Shown piece by piece: positions 1,645 to 36,048 of a stretch of DNA of 64,000 nt. The DNA comes from an uncultured Chloroflexia bacterium (GTDB taxonomy: Bacteria > Chloroflexota > Limnocylindria > Limnocylindrales > CSP1-4), in the NCBI GenBank assembly GCA_963802165.1, contig CAWDHT010000020.1, forward strand, positions 17,333-81,332. Reading direction: 5' to 3'. The first letter of the stretch is position 1, and every line of letters begins with the position of its first letter. The notes under the pieces are model-generated. The model was not told where the DNA came from. It ran no database searches and worked only from the letters and a program-made list of their open reading frames with translations. Position numbers and translations under genes: made by a program.

Positions 1645-3412
1645 GGGCAGTGGGGAGGAGGCCGCCCGGGCTCAGCCTCCCTGGCCGCCCGTCCTGCTCA
1701 GGCGTTCGCCCGGGAGGACTCGCGGTTGGCCCTGGGCCCCGTTTCCGGCCGCAGGCCTGCCGTGTCCGGTGGCTGGTCGGGCGTGGCCGCCACCGGATCG
1801 CGCATGCGACCCTCTGGAGCGGTCGTGCGCACCGGCGCGCTGGCCGATGAGACGTTGCCGAACCCGGTCCCCGGCGCGGCCGTCCCTTGGCCTCGAACCG
1901 ATCGCCTGGGCCCGCCGCCCGGTCGCGCGCCCGGGGCGCCGTGTCCCCGACCCGCGTCCGGACCCGGGCGGGCCGGACGGGCGACGAACGACTCTTCGCG
2001 ACGACGTGTCTCCTGGGGACGGTCGCCGGCAGGTCGCTCGCGGCGGTCACCCTGCGGTGCACCGCGCCCGGATCCCCGGCGGCGCCGTGGCCGCCGGGGT
2101 GCGCGGCGCCCATGCCGCGCGCGGAGGTCGCGGCGGTCTCCTCCCGAGCCGCGCCGGCGTGGCGTGCCGCGCCGGCGTGGCGTGCCGGGCCCGCCTGGCG
2201 GAGCGTGGCGGCGCGCTCGGCGCGCTCGGCGGGCGTGGATCGCAGGCGGATCGGCTCAGGGCGGATGTGCCGGTCCGGCTCGAAGCCGGCGATGGTCTCG
2301 GACGTGATCGCGCGCTTGAGCAGGGCCTGGATCGCCCGCAGCAGCGGCGCCTCGTCCACGCACACGAGCGAGATCGCCTGGCCGTCGATGCCGGCGCGAC
2401 CGGTGCGACCGATGCGGTGGACGTAGTCCTCGGGGACCATCGGCAGCTCGAAATTGACGACGTGGGGGAGCTGCTCGATGTCCAGGCCGCGTGCGGCGAT
2501 GTCGGTCGCGACGAGGATGGCGACGCGGCCCTCCTTGAAGTCCGAGAGGGCCTTCACGCGCTGGGACTGGCTGCGGTTGCCGTGGATGGCGGCCGCCTCG
2601 ATCCCGTCCCTGCGCAGCTGTTCCGCGAGGCGGTTGGCGCCGTGCTTGGTCCGCGTGAACACCAGGGCCTGCTTGACGCGGCCAAGGGCGACGAGCTCGC
2701 GCAGCAGGTCGCGCTTGCGCTCGCGGTCAACCGGGATCACGAGCTGGTCGATGAGCTCGGTCGTGGTGTTGCGGGGCGTGACCTGGACGTGCGCCGGGTT
2801 GGTCAGCAGGCCGTCGGCCAACTGGCTGATGTCGTCCGAGAAGGTCGCCGAGAACAGCAGGTTCTGGCGCTTCGGCGGCAGCACGGCCAGGATCTTGCGG
2901 ATATCGCGGATGAAGCCCATGTCCAGCATGCGGTCGGCCTCGTCGAGGACGAGGACCTCGACGCCGGACAGGTTGATCGTCCCCTGGCCGAGGTGGTCCA
3001 GCAGGCGGCCGGGCGTGGCCACGACGATCTCCGGGCCGGCGCGCAGCTTGGACACCTGGGGTCCGAAGCCCACGCCGCCGTAGACGGTGGCGGAGCGGAT
3101 CGGGCGGTGGGTGCCGTAGGTGCGGACCGACTCCTCGACCTGGATCGCCAGCTCACGGGTCGGCACGACCACGAGGACGCGGACCTGGTGGCGGGCCGCC
3201 CCGGCGTCGCGCCGGGTCTCGTGGAGCCGGTGGATGATCGGCAGCACGAAGGCGGCCGTCTTGCCGGTGCCGGTCTGGGCGCCGGCGAGCAGGTCGCGGC
3301 CCTCGAGGACCAGGGGGATGGCCGCGCTCTGGACCGGGGTGGGGGTCTCGTACCCCTGGTCGGCGACGGCTCGAAGCAGCTCGGGCGACAGCCCGAGACC
3401 ATTGAATGACAC
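1232..3412 (-). CDS. DEAD-box ATP-dependent RNA helicase (RhlE-like) with a doubtful Arg-rich tail
   Basis: Motifs present: [29 protein letters not shown]. The start was trimmed to GTG 3412 (AGGAG upstream, [14 protein letters not shown]). After about 2250 the frame is low-complexity Arg/Ala/Pro and overlaps the convergent gene 474-1644 by 413 nt, so the real 3' end is uncertain. Confidence 0.8.
2148..2183. repeat. Perfect 18-bp tandem duplication (gccgcgccggcgtggcgt x2) inside the helicase tail
   Basis: Units 2148-2165 and 2166-2183 are identical. They encode [12 protein letters not shown] on the minus strand. Confidence 0.9.
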
Positions 3413-3687: not shown

Positions 3688-4173
3688 ATGCTCGGTCGCC
3701 TGTTCCGCGTCCTCTCGGTCATCCTGCTCGGCTGGTTCGTGTTCGTCCTCGGCGCCGTCGCCTACGCGGCCATCAGGGGTCGCCAGTCAACCACGCCGGA
3801 GCCGGACGAGGACGAGATCGACCTCGTGACCACCTTCGGCGAGCTGAAATACGTGAGCACCGCCCAGTCCTTCCGCGGCGGCCGGGCTACGACGTGGTTC
3901 GCTGGCGGGACGCTCGACCTGCGGGGCGCGCGGCCAGACCCGGCCGGCGCAACCCTCCGGACCCAGACCGCCTTCGGCGGCGGCAGCCTGCTGGTGCCTG
4001 ACGACTGGCGCGTCGAGTCCCGGATCCTGCCGGTCTTCGGCGGCGTCAGCGATGCGCGGCTGGACGGGAACCCGCCCGAGGGCGGGCCGACGCTGCGCCT
4101 CGAGGGCATCGCGCTGTTCGGCGGCTGGGTCGTGACGTCCGAACCGCCCGGCGAGGAGCTGGTGACCGCCTGA
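3688..4173 (+). CDS. LiaF/YvqF-like cell-wall-stress protein (one TM segment plus a DUF2154-like C-terminal domain)
   Basis: ATG 3688 lies 9 nt after GGAG. The protein has an N-terminal TM segment ([25 protein letters not shown]). This is followed by FGELKYVS...GGTLDLRGA...[16 protein letters not shown]...VFGGV...[10 protein letters not shown], a pattern typical of LiaF C-terminal domains. Confidence 0.55.
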
Positions 4174-29092: not shown

Positions 29093-32000
29093 TCAGCTGC
29101 AGCCGGACGTCGCCCCGCAGTTGAGGCACTTGTAGCAGCTGCCGCTGCGGACCATGATCGAGCCGCACTCGGCGCAGGACGGGGCGTCCGCCTGGGCCGC
29201 GAAGGCGACCTTCACACCGCCGCCGAGGGAGCCGGTGAACGAGTCAAGGGTCCGCTTGCCGTTCCCATTCCCGTTCGCCGCCGCGGAACCGTTGGCCGCC
29301 CCGTTGCTGGCGACGGTCGCGAGCTCACGCTTGTCGACGGAAACGCTGATCGAGGGGGCTGCCGGCGCTGTGGCGGCAACGGATGGGGACGCGACCGCAC
29401 CCTTGGCCGTGTCGTCGGACGCTGGAGCCGGCGCGGGATCCGGGGCCACGGCCGGCGTCACCTCCGGCGCGATCGCCTCGGACTGGGCGGTGATGCCCTC
29501 GTCCGCGCGCGGCCGAAGGGCCGACGCGCCGAAGGCAGCCGGGGCCTCGGAGACCACCGCGGAGCGGTCGATCAGCCCGAGGGCGCCCTTCTCCTCGCTG
29601 GGCAGGAAGCGGGATCCCATCCAGCGGAAGATGTAGTCCACGAGGGACTTGGCGATCGGGATCTCCGGGTTGCCGGTGAACCCGCTCGGCTCGAACCGCA
29701 CGTGGGCGAACTTGTTCACCACGTCCCGCAGCGGCACGCCGTACTGGAGCGCCAGGCTGACCGAGGTCGCGAGCGTGTCCATCAGGCCGCTGATCGTGGA
29801 GCCTTCCTTGGCCATCTTGAGGAAGATCTCGCCCGGCTGGCCGTCCGGGTACAGGCCGACCGTGATGTAGCCCTCGTGCCCGGAGATCTCGAACTTGTGG
29901 GTGACCGCGGTCCGCTCCGACGGCAGCCGGCGGCGGTGCGGGCGGGTGGCCTCGACCTGGGCCGACGCGAGCTGCCGGCGCAGGCCCTCGATGGTCTCCT
30001 TGTCCTCGGCCGAGCCCTCGTCCTTCTTCTTGCCGGTGGACAGCGGCTGGGAGCGCTTGGAGCCGTCGCGGTAGATGGCGATGGCCTTGAGGCCCTGCTT
30101 CCAGCCCTCGAGGTAGACCGTCTCGATCTCCTCGGCCGTGGCGTTCTCCGGCATGTTGACGGTCTTGCTGATGGCGCCCGACAGGAACGGCTGGACCGCG
30201 CCCATCATCCGGATGTGGCCCATGTAGTGGATGGACCGCTCGCCGTTGACCGGCTTGAACGCGCAGTCGAAGACGGGGAGGTGCTCGTTCTTCAGGCCCG
30301 GCGCGCCCTCGATGGTCTCGCGCTCGTTGACGTAGGCGATGATCTCCTCGACCTGCGCCGGGGAGTAGCCCAGCTTGCGCAGGGCCGCCGGCACGGTCTG
30401 GTTGACGATCTTGAGGTAGCCCTCGCCGACGAGCTTCTTGTACTTGATGAGCGCGATGTCGGGCTCGATGCCGGTGGTGTCGCAGTCCATCATGAACGCG
30501 ATGGTCCCGGTGGGGGCCAGCACGGTGACCTGCGCGTTGCGGAAGCCGTGGGCGGTGCCGAGCTCCAGGACCTCGTCGTACAGGCCGCGGGCGTTGGCCA
30601 GCATGGCCTGCGGGACGCCGGTCTCGGGCAGCGCGTACGCCGCGTCGCGGTGCTTGGCGATGACGCGCAGGAACGACTCGCGGTTGGTGTCGTAGTCCAC
30701 GAAGGCGCCGCCGTGGTCCCGGGCGATGACCGAGCTCTGGCGATACGCCTCGCCGTGCATCAGGGCGGTGATCGCGCCTGCGTAGGCGCGACCTTCGTCG
30801 GAGTCGTAGGCCAGGCCGCGGTTCATGAGCAGCGCGCCCAGGTTCGCGTAGCCCAGGCCGAGGGGCCGGTAGCGGTGGCTGTTCTCCTCGATCTTCTGCG
30901 TGGGATAGCTGGCGTTGTCGACCAGGATCTCCTGCGCCGTGATCGTCACCTTGGCCGCGAAGCGGAAGGCGTCCACGTCGAACTCGCCGTCCGCCTGCAC
31001 GAACTTCATGAGGTTCAGGGAGGCCAGGTTGCACGCCGTGTCGTTGAGGAACATGTACTCCGAGCACGGGTTGGACGCGTAGATCCGGTCCGTGTTCAGG
31101 CTCGTGTGCCAGTCGTTGATGGTGGTGTCGTACTGGATGCCCGGGTCGCCGCACAGGTGGGCCGCGTCCGCCATCTTGCGGAAGATGTCCCGCGCCTTGT
31201 ACGTGCCGGCCGGCTGGCCGTCGCTGACCTCGAGCGTCTGCCACTCCGCATCGCGCTCGACGGCCTTCATGAAGTCGTCGGTCACGCGGACGCTGTGGTT
31301 GGCGTTCTGGAAGAAGACGCTGCCGTAGGCCTCGCCGGTGAAGGAGGGGTCGTAGCCCTGCTCGATGAGGGCCCAGGCCTTCTTCTCCTCGTGCGCCTTG
31401 CTGTCGATGAACTCGATCACGTCCGGGTGGCTGACGTCGAGGATCACCATCTTGGCCGCGCGGCGGGTCTTGCCGCCCGACTTGATGACGCCCGCGAAGG
31501 CGTCGTAGCCGCGCATGAAGCTGACGGGACCGCTGGCGATGCCGCCGCCCGACATCTTGGCCTTGGACGAGCGGATGGGGGACAGGTTCACGCCGGCGCC
31601 GGAGCCGTACTTGAACAGCATGGCCTCGGTCTTGGCGAGGTCCATGATGCTGCTCATGTTGTCCTGGACCGAGTTGATGAAGCACGCGGAGCACTGCGGC
31701 TTCGCCTCGATCCCCACGTTGAACCAGACCGGCGAGTTGAAGCTCATCTTCTGGTGGACCAGGAGATGGGTCAGCTCGGCCTGGAACGCGGCGAGGTCCT
31801 CGTCCGTGGCGAAGTAGCGCTGGGTGTCGGCCCAGGCGGTGATCGTGTTGACGACGCGGTCGATGAGCTGCTTGACGCTGTGCTCGCGCTCCGGCGTGCC
31901 GACGTGGCCGCGGAAGTACTTGCTCACCACGACGTTGGTGGCGAGCTGGCTCCAGAAGGCCGGGACCTCGACGTCCTTCTGCTCGAAGACCGTCTTGCCG

Positions 32001-32245
32001 GTCTCGCTGGAGATGCCGGCCGTCCGGTACTCCCACGTGATCTCGTCGTAGGGGTGGACGCCGGGGCGCGTCCAGCGGCGCTCGAACGTGAGACCGCGGG
32101 TCCCTTCGCCGTTGAAGCTGGCACCGTACGGGCCGCCGAGGCCCTTGCGCGCGGCCGACGCCGACTTGGTCCCGGTCCTGCCCCCGCGGGACTTGGGCGC
32201 AACCTTCTCATCCATGACCGGGACAACCTCGCGAGCCTGGGCCAT
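29093..32245 (-). CDS. nrdJ: Adenosylcobalamin-dependent (class II) ribonucleotide reductase
   Basis: ATG 32245 follows GGAGGAG. Motifs include VVVSKYFRG and NPCSEYMFLNDTACNLASLNL (the catalytic Cys region). The gene is 1050 aa. It has the low-complexity linker and C-terminal Zn ribbon (CAECGSIMVRSGSCYKCLNCGATSGCS) typical of actinobacterial NrdJ. Confidence 0.95.
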   Translation of the reverse strand: MAQAREVVPVMDEKVAPKSRGGRTGTKSASAARKGLGGPYGASFNGEGTRGLTFERRWTRPGVHPYDEITWEYRTAGISSETGKTVFEQKDVEVPAFWSQLATNVVVSKYFRGHVGTPEREHSVKQLIDRVVNTITAWADTQRYFATDEDLAAFQAELTHLLVHQKMSFNSPVWFNVGIEAKPQCSACFINSVQDNMSSIMDLAKTEAMLFKYGSGAGVNLSPIRSSKAKMSGGGIASGPVSFMRGYDAFAGVIKSGGKTRRAAKMVILDVSHPDVIEFIDSKAHEEKKAWALIEQGYDPSFTGEAYGSVFFQNANHSVRVTDDFMKAVERDAEWQTLEVSDGQPAGTYKARDIFRKMADAAHLCGDPGIQYDTTINDWHTSLNTDRIYASNPCSEYMFLNDTACNLASLNLMKFVQADGEFDVDAFRFAAKVTITAQEILVDNASYPTQKIEENSHRYRPLGLGYANLGALLMNRGLAYDSDEGRAYAGAITALMHGEAYRQSSVIARDHGGAFVDYDTNRESFLRVIAKHRDAAYALPETGVPQAMLANARGLYDEVLELGTAHGFRNAQVTVLAPTGTIAFMMDCDTTGIEPDIALIKYKKLVGEGYLKIVNQTVPAALRKLGYSPAQVEEIIAYVNERETIEGAPGLKNEHLPVFDCAFKPVNGERSIHYMGHIRMMGAVQPFLSGAISKTVNMPENATAEEIETVYLEGWKQGLKAIAIYRDGSKRSQPLSTGKKKDEGSAEDKETIEGLRRQLASAQVEATRPHRRRLPSERTAVTHKFEISGHEGYITVGLYPDGQPGEIFLKMAKEGSTISGLMDTLATSVSLALQYGVPLRDVVNKFAHVRFEPSGFTGNPEIPIAKSLVDYIFRWMGSRFLPSEEKGALGLIDRSAVVSEAPAAFGASALRPRADEGITAQSEAIAPEVTPAVAPDPAPAPASDDTAKGAVASPSVAATAPAAPSISVSVDKRELATVASNGAANGSAAANGNGNGKRTLDSFTGSLGGGVKVAFAAQADAPSCAECGSIMVRSGSCYKCLNCGATSGCS

Positions 32246-32576
32246 TGCCGTTTCTCTCCTCCGTTCCCGCAGACCGCGGGACCACGCCATGACGGCCGGC
32301 GGTCCGGATGGGGGTCCGTGCGGGCGTTCGCTTCCCGGGTGCCAGGCGGGTTGCGGAATGCGGGCACGGACTCCGTCCGGGTGGCTTGTCCCGCGGTCAC
32401 GTAGATGGGGTGACGCGTAGCTGCGGGGCCGTTCACCGGATCGATCTGCCGCCTTGGTCCCGGGGCCCTGTTCCGCGGGGCTTGTGGCCCGCGTTCCCTG
32501 GCGTTCCGGGGGTCGTCCGGCGGCGGAGCGACCGGTGAACTGTACGCCGCTGATGGGCCGTGGTCAAGCCGAAAAC

Positions 32577-32634
32577 CACAAGATGTAGTGGTCGGCCGGT
32601 GGTTCGCATCGCAACATATTGTGCTTCGTCCCTT
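32577..32634 (-). promoter_or_regulatory. Two NrdR-box-like palindromes upstream of nrdJ
   Basis: cacaagatgtagtg (32577-32590) and gcaacatattgtgc (32621-32634) each match about 12/14 of the NrdR box consensus (aCaCwAtATaTwGtGt) as I recall it. Their centres are 44 bp apart. Confidence 0.5.
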
Positions 32635-32695
32635 GGAGCGCCGATTCACGCCCGGTGGCCCGCCGGACACGTCCAGCTGCCTCGTCGGTCCACGC

Positions 32696-32814
32696 CGACG
32701 AGGCGCTCGTCCACACCCCGAGGCTCCTCGTCCACACGGATCGCGGTGCCTGTCCACCATCGCCACGGTGGTTGTCCACAGAACGGGCGTTCTATTGTGG
32801 ATGGTGCGGGGTGC
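32696..32814 (+). promoter_or_regulatory. Phased array of five direct DnaA-box-like 9-mers plus one inverted copy
   Basis: The direct copies are cggtccacg (32696), tcgtccaca (32717), tcgtccaca (32738), ctgtccacc (32760) and ttgtccaca (32782, a perfect match to the high-GC consensus TTGTCCACA). The inverted copy is tgtggatgg (32806). Start-to-start spacing is 21, 21, 22 and 22 bp. Confidence 0.55.
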
Positions 32815-32925
32815 CGCGCGCCGAGGCCGCCGCCGTGCCGCGCGTCGCCGCGCCGCCGTCCCTCTCGCGGCCAGGTACCGATGCCAAGCGCGGTAACCCG
32901 CCGCCTCCGCCCTGTTCACGGCCAC

Positions 32926-33027
32926 CCACCGGTGGAGTGCGTCGTACGCCCGCGTTGACCGCCGGTTGGTGGCCAGCCACCGGTGCGGCGCGTGGTGGGC
33001 CAGGACCTGCTGGCCTACCACCGGTGG
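32926..33027. repeat. Three copies of a GGCCnnCCACCGGTG(G/C) motif with a 10-bp palindromic core
   Basis: The copies are ccaccggtgg at 32926-32935, ccaccggtgc at 32977-32986 and ccaccggtgg at 33018-33027. Each is preceded by ggccNN. Confidence 0.6.
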
Positions 33028-33076
33028 CATCAGTGGAAGGCCGCGACCTCGGGGCGAAGGCGCCCGTCACCGTGCG

Positions 33077-33808
33077 TCACCCTGCGGCACGAGCCGCGCG
33101 AACGCGCCTGACCGCGGCAGGGCTCCTGGTACCAACGACTCCACCAGTGGATGGCCAGAAGCTGAGCGCGGCGATGGGGCCGGACGGCGCGGCGAGCCAC
33201 GCGTTCATCGCGTGCCCATCCGCCGGGAGCGCGGCTCGCAGCAGGGTGCGGTGTGCCGCGACGCGGCGGCGGTTGGTCCGTCCCCCGGCGAGGATGACCC
33301 ACGTGCCCACCACCGCCGGCCGCCAACCGCGCTCCACGGCGATCTTCGGGGCCAGGCGACGCTTCCGATCGAGCGTCCCGACGAGCTCCTGGACGTCGAC
33401 GATCTCGGTCTTGAGCTCGATGACGAGGAGCGTGCGGGTGGGCTCGTGCCAGGCGAGCACGTCGATCGCCCCGCGCTCACCGTAGATGGAGAACGTGACC
33501 TCGGGGACCGCGCGCCAGCCGGGCAGCGTCGCGAACCGCGCAGCGACCGCCTCCTGCAAGGCCGAATGCCGCGCACCGAGGAGTCGATCCAGCTCGCCTC
33601 CACGCCAGCGGGGCACCAGGTCCAGCGTGATCCCGATGGCCTCGCCGATGGCCCGGATCTGCGCCACCGTCATGCCGCCGATTGCACCGCGTTCGAGCCG
33701 CGAGATGGTGTCCTGCGAGGTCGTTGCCACGAGGGCGACATCGACCTGCCGGAGCCGCTTGCGGATTCGGACGGCGCGGTACACGCGACCGAGGGCAGCA
33801 TCGTCCAT
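33077..33808 (-). CDS. XRE-family HTH protein fused to a PD-(D/E)xK-like C-terminal domain
   Basis: The N-terminal HTH is VRIRKRLRQVDVALVATTSQDTISRLERG. The C-terminal part, GAIDVLAWHEPTRTLLVIELKTEIVDVQE, fits D...ExK. Confidence 0.6.
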   Translation of the reverse strand: MDDAALGRVYRAVRIRKRLRQVDVALVATTSQDTISRLERGAIGGMTVAQIRAIGEAIGITLDLVPRWRGGELDRLLGARHSALQEAVAARFATLPGWRAVPEVTFSIYGERGAIDVLAWHEPTRTLLVIELKTEIVDVQELVGTLDRKRRLAPKIAVERGWRPAVVGTWVILAGGRTNRRRVAAHRTLLRAALPADGHAMNAWLAAPSGPIAALSFWPSTGGVVGTRSPAAVRRVRAARAAG

Positions 33809-33871
33809 GCGCCAAGGATCGCTGCCGTGGCTTACGCGGGGCTTACGCGGGTCGGCGATGATCTGCTCGCG

Positions 33872-34783
33872 ATGGTGACGAAGGACAAGCGATGGGCCTC
33901 ACCGATCCTCGTCGGCGTCGATGCGGGTGCGACCAAGGCCGTCGCGATCGCCGTGACCACGGACGGGGAACGGCTCGCCCGCGCCGAGGGTCCCGGCGCC
34001 AACCCCAAGCGCCACGGCCTGGACGTCGCCGCGGACCGGATCTCGGCGCTCGCGGGCCGGGTCGCCGGCGGCCGCCCGATCGCCGTTCTCTTCGTCGCCG
34101 GTGCGGGCATCGATCGACCCGAGCACGCCCGGGCACTCGAGGGAGCCCTGCGCCACCGACGTGACGAGGACGAGCGCGTGATCGTCGTGAACGACACCCT
34201 CGCGGTGCTGCGCGCCGGCACGCCCGATGCCGTGGGCATCGCGGTGCCCGTCTCGACCGGCGGCAACGTGATCGGCCGGGCGGGCGACGGTCGCGTCACG
34301 GACCGCGGCCACGGGATCTTCGGCGGCGGCTACGTGTTGGGCGCGCTCGCGGCGCGGGCCGCGGGCAGGGGGCGGGTGGGGGAGGAGCTCGCCCGGGAGA
34401 TCGACGCGGCCGGCCTGAGCTGGCGGGGACGCAGGCCCGGTCCGGAGGCCGCCGTCCTGGGCGTGGCGGTGGCTCGTGCGGCCGAGCGGGGCGATCCCTA
34501 CCCACGGCGCCTGGTCGACCGCTGGTGCGCCCGGGTCACCGGTGCCCTCCGCGAGGAAGTCCGGCGCCTGGGGCTGGGCGACGAGCCGGCCGTCGTCGTC
34601 TACGGCGGGCTCGGGGACGCCTCGCCCTGGCTGGCGAACCGCATCCGTGTGGCCGTTCTCGCCGGAGCGCCGCGCGCCCGCATCGTGCACCTGGAGACGG
34701 AGCCCGCCGCAGGCGCAGCGGCTCTCGCCCTCGACGCGCGGCTGGGCGCTCCCATCGCCTGGGACTTCACGCCCCGCCGCTGA
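33872..34783 (+). CDS. BadF/BadG/BcrA/BcrD-type ATPase (N-acetylglucosamine-kinase-like)
   Basis: The sequence is ILVGVDAGATKAVAIAVTTDGERLARAEGPGANP...VAGAGIDRPE...VVNDTLAVLRAG...VSTGGNVIG...GGGYVLG. The ATG is at 33872. Confidence 0.7.
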   Translation: MVTKDKRWASPILVGVDAGATKAVAIAVTTDGERLARAEGPGANPKRHGLDVAADRISALAGRVAGGRPIAVLFVAGAGIDRPEHARALEGALRHRRDEDERVIVVNDTLAVLRAGTPDAVGIAVPVSTGGNVIGRAGDGRVTDRGHGIFGGGYVLGALAARAAGRGRVGEELAREIDAAGLSWRGRRPGPEAAVLGVAVARAAERGDPYPRRLVDRWCARVTGALREEVRRLGLGDEPAVVVYGGLGDASPWLANRIRVAVLAGAPRARIVHLETEPAAGAAALALDARLGAPIAWDFTPRR

Positions 34784-34804: not shown

Positions 34805-35419
34805 CTATTCGGCCGCCGGCGTCTCGTCGAGCGCCGCCGCCCGCTTCGCCAGGTCCCGCTCGAACATCGGCTTCGCCTTGAGCGCTGCCCTGAGCTCCGC
34901 GTCGGCCTCCGCGAGCTCGGCGAGCCGCTCCGCCACACCCGGCGCCTCGGGGTCCGCCAGCAGCGTCTCGCGCAGCAGGCCGATGTACCGCTCCGTCTCC
35001 GGCCCCTTGAACGCGGCCAGTCCCGCGATCCGCTCCGCGACCTCCTCGTTCCGCCCGGCCACGGACCAGCCCCCGTGCTCGCGCACGAGCAGCTGCAGCT
35101 CTCGCCCCTCGTGGAGCGCGCGGTACCGGAGCGACGGCCCGCCCGTGAACTTGATGACCTGGTCGGGCCGGTAGATCACCATCAGCGAGAGGATGAGGAC
35201 GAAGATGCCGATGTCGAACGGGAGGAAGTTGGGGGAGATCGCAACCAGGAGGCCCACGATCGCGATCGCCATCAGCGCGGCGGCGATGTTGCCGCCGCCG
35301 TACCGCCGAGACCGGTGCTGGAGCTGGACCCACAGCAGGACGGACAGGACGACGATCCCCACGCCGCCGAGGATCAGGAGCAGCGCATGTGCCGGATCGG
35401 GGTCGATGAAGGAGAGCAT
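34805..35419 (-). CDS. Hypothetical membrane protein (3 TM segments plus a helical cytoplasmic domain)
   Basis: The ORF is complete, with TM segments and good codon bias. I recognise no family. Confidence 0.55.
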   Translation of the reverse strand: MLSFIDPDPAHALLLILGGVGIVVLSVLLWVQLQHRSRRYGGGNIAAALMAIAIVGLLVAISPNFLPFDIGIFVLILSLMVIYRPDQVIKFTGGPSLRYRALHEGRELQLLVREHGGWSVAGRNEEVAERIAGLAAFKGPETERYIGLLRETLLADPEAPGVAERLAELAEADAELRAALKAKPMFERDLAKRAAALDETPAAE

Positions 35420-35553
35420 CCGCCAAGGATCGGGCAGAACCTCGAAGCCTGCAACGAGCGGGAGCCCGCGGCGGATCGCGCGAGAGCGACGACACCCGGG
35501 GCCGACCTCGAGATCGGCCCCGGGCGCGGGACCGCCGCATGATCCCAGGGACG

Positions 35554-35829
35554 CTACCGGCCCTCACGCTCCGAGGCGCGGAACTCGATCAGCGAGGAGC
35601 CCTGGGTCGGCACGCCGACCACCCAGTCGGTGCGCTCGGCGGCCCGGTACTGGATCAGCGACTGCACCTCCTCGATCGGGGTCACGGTCGGCACGACGTT
35701 GACGCGAACGGTCATCGCGACGCCGACGACGACGATGAGCGCGATCGCGACGCCGACCGCGATCAGGAAGTTGCGGAACAGGTGATCGCCGGTGACGCCG
35801 GCGTGGTGGGCTGGAACGTGCAGTGCCAT
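35554..35829 (-). CDS. Small single-TM hypothetical protein (91 aa)
   Basis: ATG 35829 follows AGGAGG. The TM segment is FLIAVGVAIALIVVVGVAM. Confidence 0.5.
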   Translation of the reverse strand: MALHVPAHHAGVTGDHLFRNFLIAVGVAIALIVVVGVAMTVRVNVVPTVTPIEEVQSLIQYRAAERTDWVVGVPTQGSSLIEFRASEREGR

Positions 35830-36048
35830 CGCGGCACCTCCTGGTGCCCGCGGGCCCGTCTCGCCAGTGGCTCGGGACCGTCCCGGCGGCAGGGATTTGG
35901 ACGGTCCTTCGCGGCCTCCCGCGTATCCGTTGAGGATCGTGCCTCGCGCAGCTGGCGATTGACAGGGCCGACAGGTGGCGGACGTCGGGGACCGTAACGC
36001 CGCCGCCCGGCCGACGGGTCGCGACCACAACCCGCGCTGCAGCCCGGC

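Follow-up and report, generated by a model that had tools for sequence, protein, structure and literature searches.

We examined the region upstream of a class II (B12-dependent) ribonucleotide reductase gene, nrdJ, in a 64,000-nucleotide stretch of DNA (the window; 72% GC) from an uncultured member of the Chloroflexota. The gene encodes a protein of 1050 aa with the Pfam domains Ribonuc_red_2_N, Ribonuc_red_lgC, and TSCPD. Its first in-frame ATG is at 32290; however, translation likely starts at the ATG at 32245, in view of a conserved GGAGGAG ribosome-binding site and an MA(Q/R)A N-terminus that aligns with those of relatives. An exact-sequence look-up with the protein read from either start gave no recorded protein. 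Ahead of the class II N-domain, NrdJ carries an extension of roughly 80 aa that is variable and repetitive in relatives. The next gene upstream, on the same strand, encodes an XRE-family HTH protein. Read on the nrdJ strand, the order is a LexA-type palindrome, a row of DnaA boxes, two NrdR boxes, the -35 and -10 elements, the leader, and nrdJ. Two words serve as references for the boxes, namely TTGTCCACA, the high-affinity DnaA box of M. tuberculosis and S. coelicolor, and TTATCCACA, that of E. coli and B. subtilis (PMC4285127). The features are listed below, with 9-mer scores given relative to these boxes of other organisms, from which the preference of the host lineage may differ:

29093-32245, minus strand: nrdJ, class II ribonucleotide reductase
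32246-32532, minus strand: nrdJ leader of ~290 nt, with GGTCGCTC near its 5' end
32539-32567, minus strand: predicted sigma-70-type promoter, TTGACC-17 nt-TACAGT, of which TTGAC and TAnnGT are kept in relatives
32577-32590, minus strand: NrdR box 2, core CACTACATCTTGTG
32610-32623, minus strand: NrdR box 1, core CACAATATGTTGCG
32642-32650, plus strand: B0, weak candidate DnaA box CGATTCACG with a TTCAC core, inferred from its in-phase position alone, 44 bp from B1
32686-32694, plus strand: B1, DnaA-like box CGGTCCACG, 6/9 to TTGTCCACA
32707-32715, plus strand: B2, DnaA-like box TCGTCCACA, 8/9
32728-32736, plus strand: B3, DnaA-like box TCGTCCACA, 8/9
32750-32758, plus strand: B4, DnaA-like box CTGTCCACC, 7/9
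32772-32780, plus strand: B5, perfect high-GC-type DnaA box TTGTCCACA, 9/9, at the distal end of the array
32780-32793: LexA-type (Cheo-box-like) palindrome AGAACGGGCGTTCT, AGAAC-GGGC-GTTCT, overlapping the last base of B5
32796-32804, minus strand: B6, inverted DnaA-like box CCATCCACA, 7/9 to TTATCCACA
33077-33808, minus strand: XRE-family HTH gene

The GTCCAC cores of the array start on the plus strand at 32688, 32709, 32730, 32752, and 32774, with spacings of 21, 21, 22, and 22 bp. The original prediction had described five same-strand cores in this order, orientation, and spacing, including one perfect 9-mer (B5) and two 8/9 matches (B2 and B3), as well as an inverted copy beyond the array (B6). 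All of these are present, and its array coordinates are corrected here, being about 10 bp too high. It had also placed the array ~450-570 bp upstream of nrdJ, which agrees with the 441-557 bp that we measure from ATG 32245, and it had rightly recognized two NrdR boxes with the first DnaA box ~60 bp further out. Specifically, the exact boxes stop ~60-65 bp short of NrdR box 1, and B0 would continue the series promoter-ward as the array member nearest the NrdR boxes. The array occupies about -100 to -270 relative to the predicted promoter, in non-coding DNA distant from the predicted -35. Against the DnaA-box pattern TT(A/G)TNCACA with at least one high-affinity consensus box, the array qualifies through the perfect B5, which is a probable high-affinity anchor. 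The predicted layout is 5-7 DnaA boxes on one helix face, one per two turns, and no cryptic boxes were found between the 21-22 bp-spaced sites in the window. B2 and B3 have the 11-mer CTCGTCCACAC in common (repeat family D6), which can be read as tandem duplication of a 21-bp unit, and B4 and B5 have CGGTGnnTGTCCAC in common (repeat family D4). We also considered a coding repeat and rejected it, since a period of 21-22 bp is not a multiple of 3 and the GC frame plot is flat, with no coding signal from 32300 to ~32850. Separately, a perfect 10-bp inverted repeat, GCCTCGTCGG/CCGACGAGGC, spans 32679-32704 with the B1 core inside its 6-nt loop; this hairpin has no T-tract and is absent from L001 and other relatives.

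CACAATATGTTGCG and CACTACATCTTGTG together form an NrdR operator pair as that operator family has been defined (bioRxiv 10.1101/2025.03.28.645925). Their starts are 33 bp apart in all of the 12 clade loci except L014, where the distance is 34 bp. In the window, the two boxes lie just upstream of the predicted -35, unlike the many cases in which NrdR boxes cover it. Downstream of the promoter, the leader ranges from 160 to 410 nt in relatives, with GGTCGCTC-like bases near the 5' end. It contains an invariant, near-palindromic GYAGCTAC (32416-32423 in the window) at ~122 nt from the -10 in 11/12 loci, and the sequence separating the two is divergent although the distance is fixed. We found no Rfam match and no RNAalifold consensus pairs for leader RNA structure, and single-sequence folds have z-scores close to 0; in these folds, the leader's 5' end tends to base-pair with a stretch ~90 nt further downstream. 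The leader of L002 (~3735-3830) carries about seven tandem copies of a 14-nt unit, GGCAGCCGCGGAAC, which is absent from other relatives.

On the far side of the array, a segment of ~1.04 kb (~32815-33890) holds the XRE-family gene and, downstream of it, repeats of GGCCnnCCACCGGTGG, with three direct copies (32920, 32971, and 33012) and inverted copies near 32959 and 33141. The whole segment is missing from L174, where a BadF/BcrAD-type ATPase gene directly adjoins the array, and from this comparison the segment looks like an insertion. Further out, a c-di-GMP-II-GAG riboswitch aptamer (Rfam) lies at 35844-35928 on the minus strand (60.5 bits against a gathering score of 40, E 2.4e-10), upstream of an ORF of 252 aa (34805-35563, minus strand) that has no Pfam domain.

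Chance is excluded for the cluster of boxes, but not for the word GTCCAC. The original prediction had taken enrichment of this word over background as a test. The hexamer does exceed expectation, with 91 copies in the window versus 57 +/- 7.5 in shuffles, a surplus that we would guess comes from the frequent codon pairs GTG-GAC and GTC-CAC, whereas the 9-mer TTGTCCACA with at most one mismatch is not enriched window-wide (4 found versus 4.6 expected). Three of these four matches fall in the 74-bp stretch of the array. The clustering lies beyond chance: at most 3 same-strand GTCCAC copies occur per 100 bp in 300 simulated first-order Markov sequences of 64 kb each, versus 5 observed, and the array is the densest DnaA-box cluster in the 64 kb.

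We then compared nrdJ loci of related genomes. The closest relatives of this NrdJ, at 73-86% identity, come from Chloroflexota MAGs labelled Chloroflexia or Limnocylindrales, not from Actinobacteria. In all 11 clade genome loci (L001-L007, L009, L010, L014, and L049), 3-9 RTCCAC boxes lie just upstream of the NrdR boxes, and arrays of likewise 3-9 RTCCAC boxes occupy the same place in the more distant L011 and L012 and in the metagenome relatives L174 and L189. Conservation at nrdJ in relatives, which had been named as a check, is thereby borne out. Words matching TT[AG]TCCACA with at most one mismatch reach 2.6/kb in the array region versus 0.10/kb in the rest of the loci, a 25-fold contrast (Poisson P about 1e-24, with related genomes as non-independent observations). 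The genes next upstream share no relationship from one locus to another (PALP enzyme, XRE regulator, GAF-PAS histidine kinase, ICMT methyltransferase, GNAT, and ROK), and L174 retains the palindrome-array-NrdR module without the XRE segment. Because the neighbours vary while the array stays, and because the module persists in L174 without that segment, the array belongs to nrdJ. Its phasing is equally regular: 42 of 44 successive same-strand spacings equal n x 11 +/- 1 bp (11, 21-22, 32-33, or 42-44 bp), and a period of 10.7-10.8 bp fits best (R = 0.75). The last box comes within -2 to +4 bp of NrdR box 1 in several relatives.

Beside the array lies a conserved GAAC-N4-GTTC palindrome that the original prediction had missed. 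This pattern has 2 matches in the 64 kb, one of them AGAACGGGCGTTCT, which we counted as a putative Cheo-type SOS box (palindrome CGAAC-N4-GTTCG). One LexA of the Chloroflexi, that of Dehalococcoides, recognizes the Gram-positive box. With at most one mismatch allowed, each of the 12 clade loci has this palindrome just once, 165-221 bp upstream of NrdR box 2, and this fixed position indicates that the length of the array compartment is constrained. It overlaps the anchor box in the window, L001, and L174, and B6 faces B5 across it, an arrangement also seen in L001. TATAAT, oriented toward nrdJ, follows the palindrome in L004; the window and L174 have TATTGT/TATTAT there instead, oriented away from nrdJ. 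A terminator scan gave a single terminator-like match, at 32773-32789, which we rejected since it merely reflects the LexA-type palindrome.

We next looked beyond the clade, at 69 nrdJ loci from other phyla. There, TTATCCACA occurs 9 times in 54 kb upstream of nrdJ versus once in the remaining 613 kb (~100-fold denser), and it ranks 1 of 1680 same-composition words upstream of nrdJ, the runner-up being part of the NrdR box. Perfect copies of TTATCCACA are found at the equivalent place in Dormibacterota, Acidobacteriota, Myxococcota, Gammaproteobacteria, and Saccharibacteria. The other phyla keep 1-3 boxes, which often abut the NrdR boxes (L067, L076, L030, L053, L056, and L044); L067 has two convergent boxes beside its NrdR boxes, and L076 and L030, both Dormibacterota, have two direct boxes 11-12 bp apart. 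No lineage-specific regulator accounts for this recurrence, which fits the universally conserved DnaA.

Arrays at dnaA or oriC were sought in metagenomes with the pattern GTCCAC-N15/16-GTCCAC-N15/16-GTCCAC, covering at least 120 loci. Among the matches listed, most are coding tandem repeats together with one recurrent conserved coding stretch, and tblastn found no dnaA among these loci (at least 120). The informative ones among the matches listed are the nrdJ relatives L174 and L189 and a further contig, L086 (metagenome contig ODIP01001469.1), with boxes upstream of dnaB. In this 65% GC organism, three DnaA-type boxes follow one another every 21 bp at 2962-3009, with inverted boxes on the flanks, and two of the three are perfect TTGTCCACA. 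They sit at or just upstream of the 5' end of the gene for the replicative helicase DnaB. By its sequence, L086 is an independent two-turn array of DnaA-type boxes at a replication gene.

Taken together, these results suggest that the array is probably a DnaA-box cluster forming the upstream part of the nrdJ regulatory region, and not a replication origin. This agrees with the original prediction of DnaA-type boxes tied to the nrdJ promoter: the array follows nrdJ, its flanks match the consensus, its phasing is 10.7-10.8 bp, and TTATCCACA recurs across phyla. The anatomy of the array, its conservation, its phasing, and its cross-phylum association were all observed directly. The main weakness of the DnaA reading is the dominant spacing of 21-22 bp, versus 11-12 bp in the E. 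coli double box.

The array might instead bind DnaA mainly to titrate or recharge it, as a datA- or DARS-like site, with its adjacency to nrdJ incidental or secondary. We consider this improbable. Its standing as the densest cluster of the window would suit such a sink, as would the variable orientation of the array relative to nrdJ, which differs between loci and makes a strictly directional mechanism unlikely. E. coli DARS1 likewise joins DnaA boxes and LexA sites upstream of uvrB (PMC6015884, PMC11317965). The orientation differences and the extra identity between neighbouring boxes can also be read as turnover of the array through 21-22 bp units duplicating in tandem, which one would expect where copy number is what counts. 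However, a pure sink need not stay at one gene, and this array always lies between the palindrome and the nrdJ NrdR boxes. The 1-3 boxes that other phyla keep directly against their NrdR boxes resemble promoter control, and an unsystematic look identified neither an IHF-like site nor a DARS-type box arrangement.

It is similarly unlikely that the repeats only happen to look like DnaA boxes and instead serve a different regulator, for example a response regulator of the OmpR/PhoB family, that recognizes direct repeats on one helical face. Winged-helix response regulators typically bind direct repeats with a period of 11 bp (PhoB/PhoP, GlnR, and MtrA sites), and the array has this periodicity; its 21-22 bp spacing also departs from the E. 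coli DnaA double box. To look at the motif itself, we picked 63 boxes by the RTCCAC core alone, leaving the flanks unselected. Strict conservation is limited to this 6-bp core, which would suit such a regulator, and positions 1, 2, and 9 are merely biased: position 1 is T/C (T 44%), position 2 is C/T (T 35%), and position 9 follows A>G>C (A 38%) with almost no T, whereas A and T each make up roughly 14% of the genome. The consensus of the 63 boxes is YYRTCCACV and the best word is TTGTCCACA, so that the unselected flanks drift toward TT...A as in the DnaA consensus. Position 3 alternates between A and G, and weak in-phase sites in the clade use GTGCAC and TTCAC cores. DnaA boxes tolerate variation at position 5, and these weak cores fit that tolerance. 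Further evidence against another regulator comes from the perfect TTATCCACA at nrdJ in five further groups, which only a universally conserved protein explains, and from the 21-bp-phased triple of TTGTCCACA-type boxes before dnaB in L086. The 11-bp periodicity would fit an OmpR/PhoB-type site, but the motif equals the universal DnaA box and recurs as TTATCCACA in other phyla, which speaks against a lineage-specific factor.

It is very improbable that the array has no function and is simply left over from a 21-22 bp unit that was duplicated locally in tandem. The identity of B2 with B3 and of B4 with B5 does extend beyond the core, but cores are conserved and spacers divergent over relatives at 73-86% NrdJ identity, and the invariant columns of a three-way alignment coincide with NrdR boxes and box cores, the spacers being divergent. 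Helical phasing is strict across independent arrays, and the motif recurs across phyla.

Least credible of all is a replication origin, either a chromosomal oriC or the iteron origin of an integrated plasmid-like element: several DnaA-type boxes share one orientation and a repeat period of 21-22 bp is typical of iterons, but the GC skew keeps its sign across 32.7 kb with no switch near it, local GC is 64-73% with no AT-rich unwinding element, the neighbours are nrdJ and an XRE-family gene with no rep gene nearby, 6-9 bp of each 21-22 bp unit are conserved where the 17-22 bp repeats of iteron origins are conserved over most of their length beside a rep gene, many genera keep the element at nrdJ although the neighbours differ, and no dnaA homologue was found by tblastn in the window or any fetched locus. 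The tblastn queries were E. coli DnaA, B. subtilis LexA, and E. coli NrdR, and none of the three had a match in the window or the clade loci. The skew and the absence of a dnaA homologue were the check set by the original prediction, and both disfavour oriC.

The DnaA-box cluster can be compared with several known systems. At E. coli nrdAB (class Ia) and nrdDG (class III), as here, a reductase promoter that NrdR also controls is preceded by DnaA boxes, direct boxes sit on one helical face, and the logic would couple initiator status to dNTP supply. E. coli DnaA prefers a double box spaced 11-12 bp, it binds such double boxes at nrdA and nrdD, the class III binding having been mapped, and this binding is cooperative, as we propose for the present array (PMC11317965). 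The present locus differs in that the reductase is class II and that there are 5-7 boxes (relatives have up to 9) where E. coli has 2. They are mostly 21-22 bp apart, not 11-12 bp, and lie distal to the NrdR boxes (-100 to -270) with a LexA-type palindrome flanking them. The host is an uncultured high-GC member of the Chloroflexota. In Caulobacter crescentus, nrdB is among the direct DnaA targets and is activated (PMC3193534), making DnaA a transcription factor for a nucleotide-synthesis gene, as predicted here; that reductase is class Ia, and a long phased array is undescribed there.

At E. coli uvrB/DARS1, DnaA boxes and LexA operators share one upstream region, which gives a precedent for co-regulation by DnaA and LexA (PMC6015884). 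DnaA boxes are joined with LexA-type sites in both cases, but the target gene is different, the specific three-box core that DARS1 needs for its function was not recognized here, and the present locus has a single distal LexA-type palindrome. The low-affinity sites of E. coli oriC are thought to be filled from a high-affinity anchor, building an oligomer (PMC4285127). Both arrays consist of phased sites in the same orientation, and the window has a perfect distal box followed by weaker ones. At oriC, the sites are separated by 2 bp (11-bp period) and act in DNA unwinding at an adjacent DUE, whereas the present boxes come once every two turns, at a promoter and with no DUE.

On these grounds, we propose how the DnaA-box cluster may act on nrdJ; DnaA binding, its cooperativity, the filament raised by the original prediction, the sign of the effect, and the role of LexA are inferred from sequence comparison. 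DnaA would bind the perfect distal box B5 (TTGTCCACA) first, and DnaA-ATP would then fill the weaker phased boxes cooperatively, promoter-ward. Occupancy of the proximal sites beside NrdR box 1 would interfere with NrdR and alter promoter output. The LexA-type operator may add a DNA-damage input by gating the anchor box or, alternatively, through control of a distal promoter. As to sign, the main alternative is repression at high DnaA-ATP, which has reportedly been proposed for E. coli nrdAB (Gon 2006, Olliver 2010). We favour activation or anti-repression, in which the NrdR repressor would be antagonized at high DnaA-ATP and dNTP synthesis would rise as the cell becomes competent to initiate. 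Positive control by DnaA is reported at E. coli nrdA and Caulobacter nrdB (PMC11317965, PMC3193534).

A bolder version of this proposal is possible but doubtful. The array could be a scaffold for an unusual DnaA-ATP oligomer with one protomer per two turns, which would both sequester the initiator, as a datA- or DARS-like sink, and displace NrdR, with the LexA operator over the anchor gating nucleation. On this view, three signals would be integrated at the nrdJ promoter, namely initiation potential through DnaA, DNA damage through LexA, and the dNTP pool through NrdR, and the arrangement would have expanded in Limnocylindria-like Chloroflexota from an ancestral one- or two-box DnaA/NrdR module of many phyla.

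To our knowledge, DnaA control of dNTP synthesis has been demonstrated experimentally just in a few Proteobacteria, and for class Ia and class III reductases alone. We found no report in the literature linking DnaA boxes to nrdJ or to a class II reductase. The novelty claimed in the original prediction was overstated, given that class Ia control and class III binding are known and that DnaA boxes at nrdJ are widespread. What is new here is the class of reductase, an array of much greater length, its two-turn spacing, and the LexA-type site beside it, whereas the factor and the logic are known. The principle itself would not surprise a specialist, and the system is testable.

A module of DnaA boxes and NrdR boxes appears widespread at class II reductase promoters, in at least 6 phyla, and one uncultured lineage of soil and freshwater Chloroflexota has expanded it to 5-9 strictly phased boxes. 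The array offers a cis-element for studying DnaA oligomerization on sites two turns apart, an opening for work on how a single promoter combines initiator, SOS, and dNTP-pool signals, and a sequence signature for predicting DnaA regulons in uncultured bacteria.
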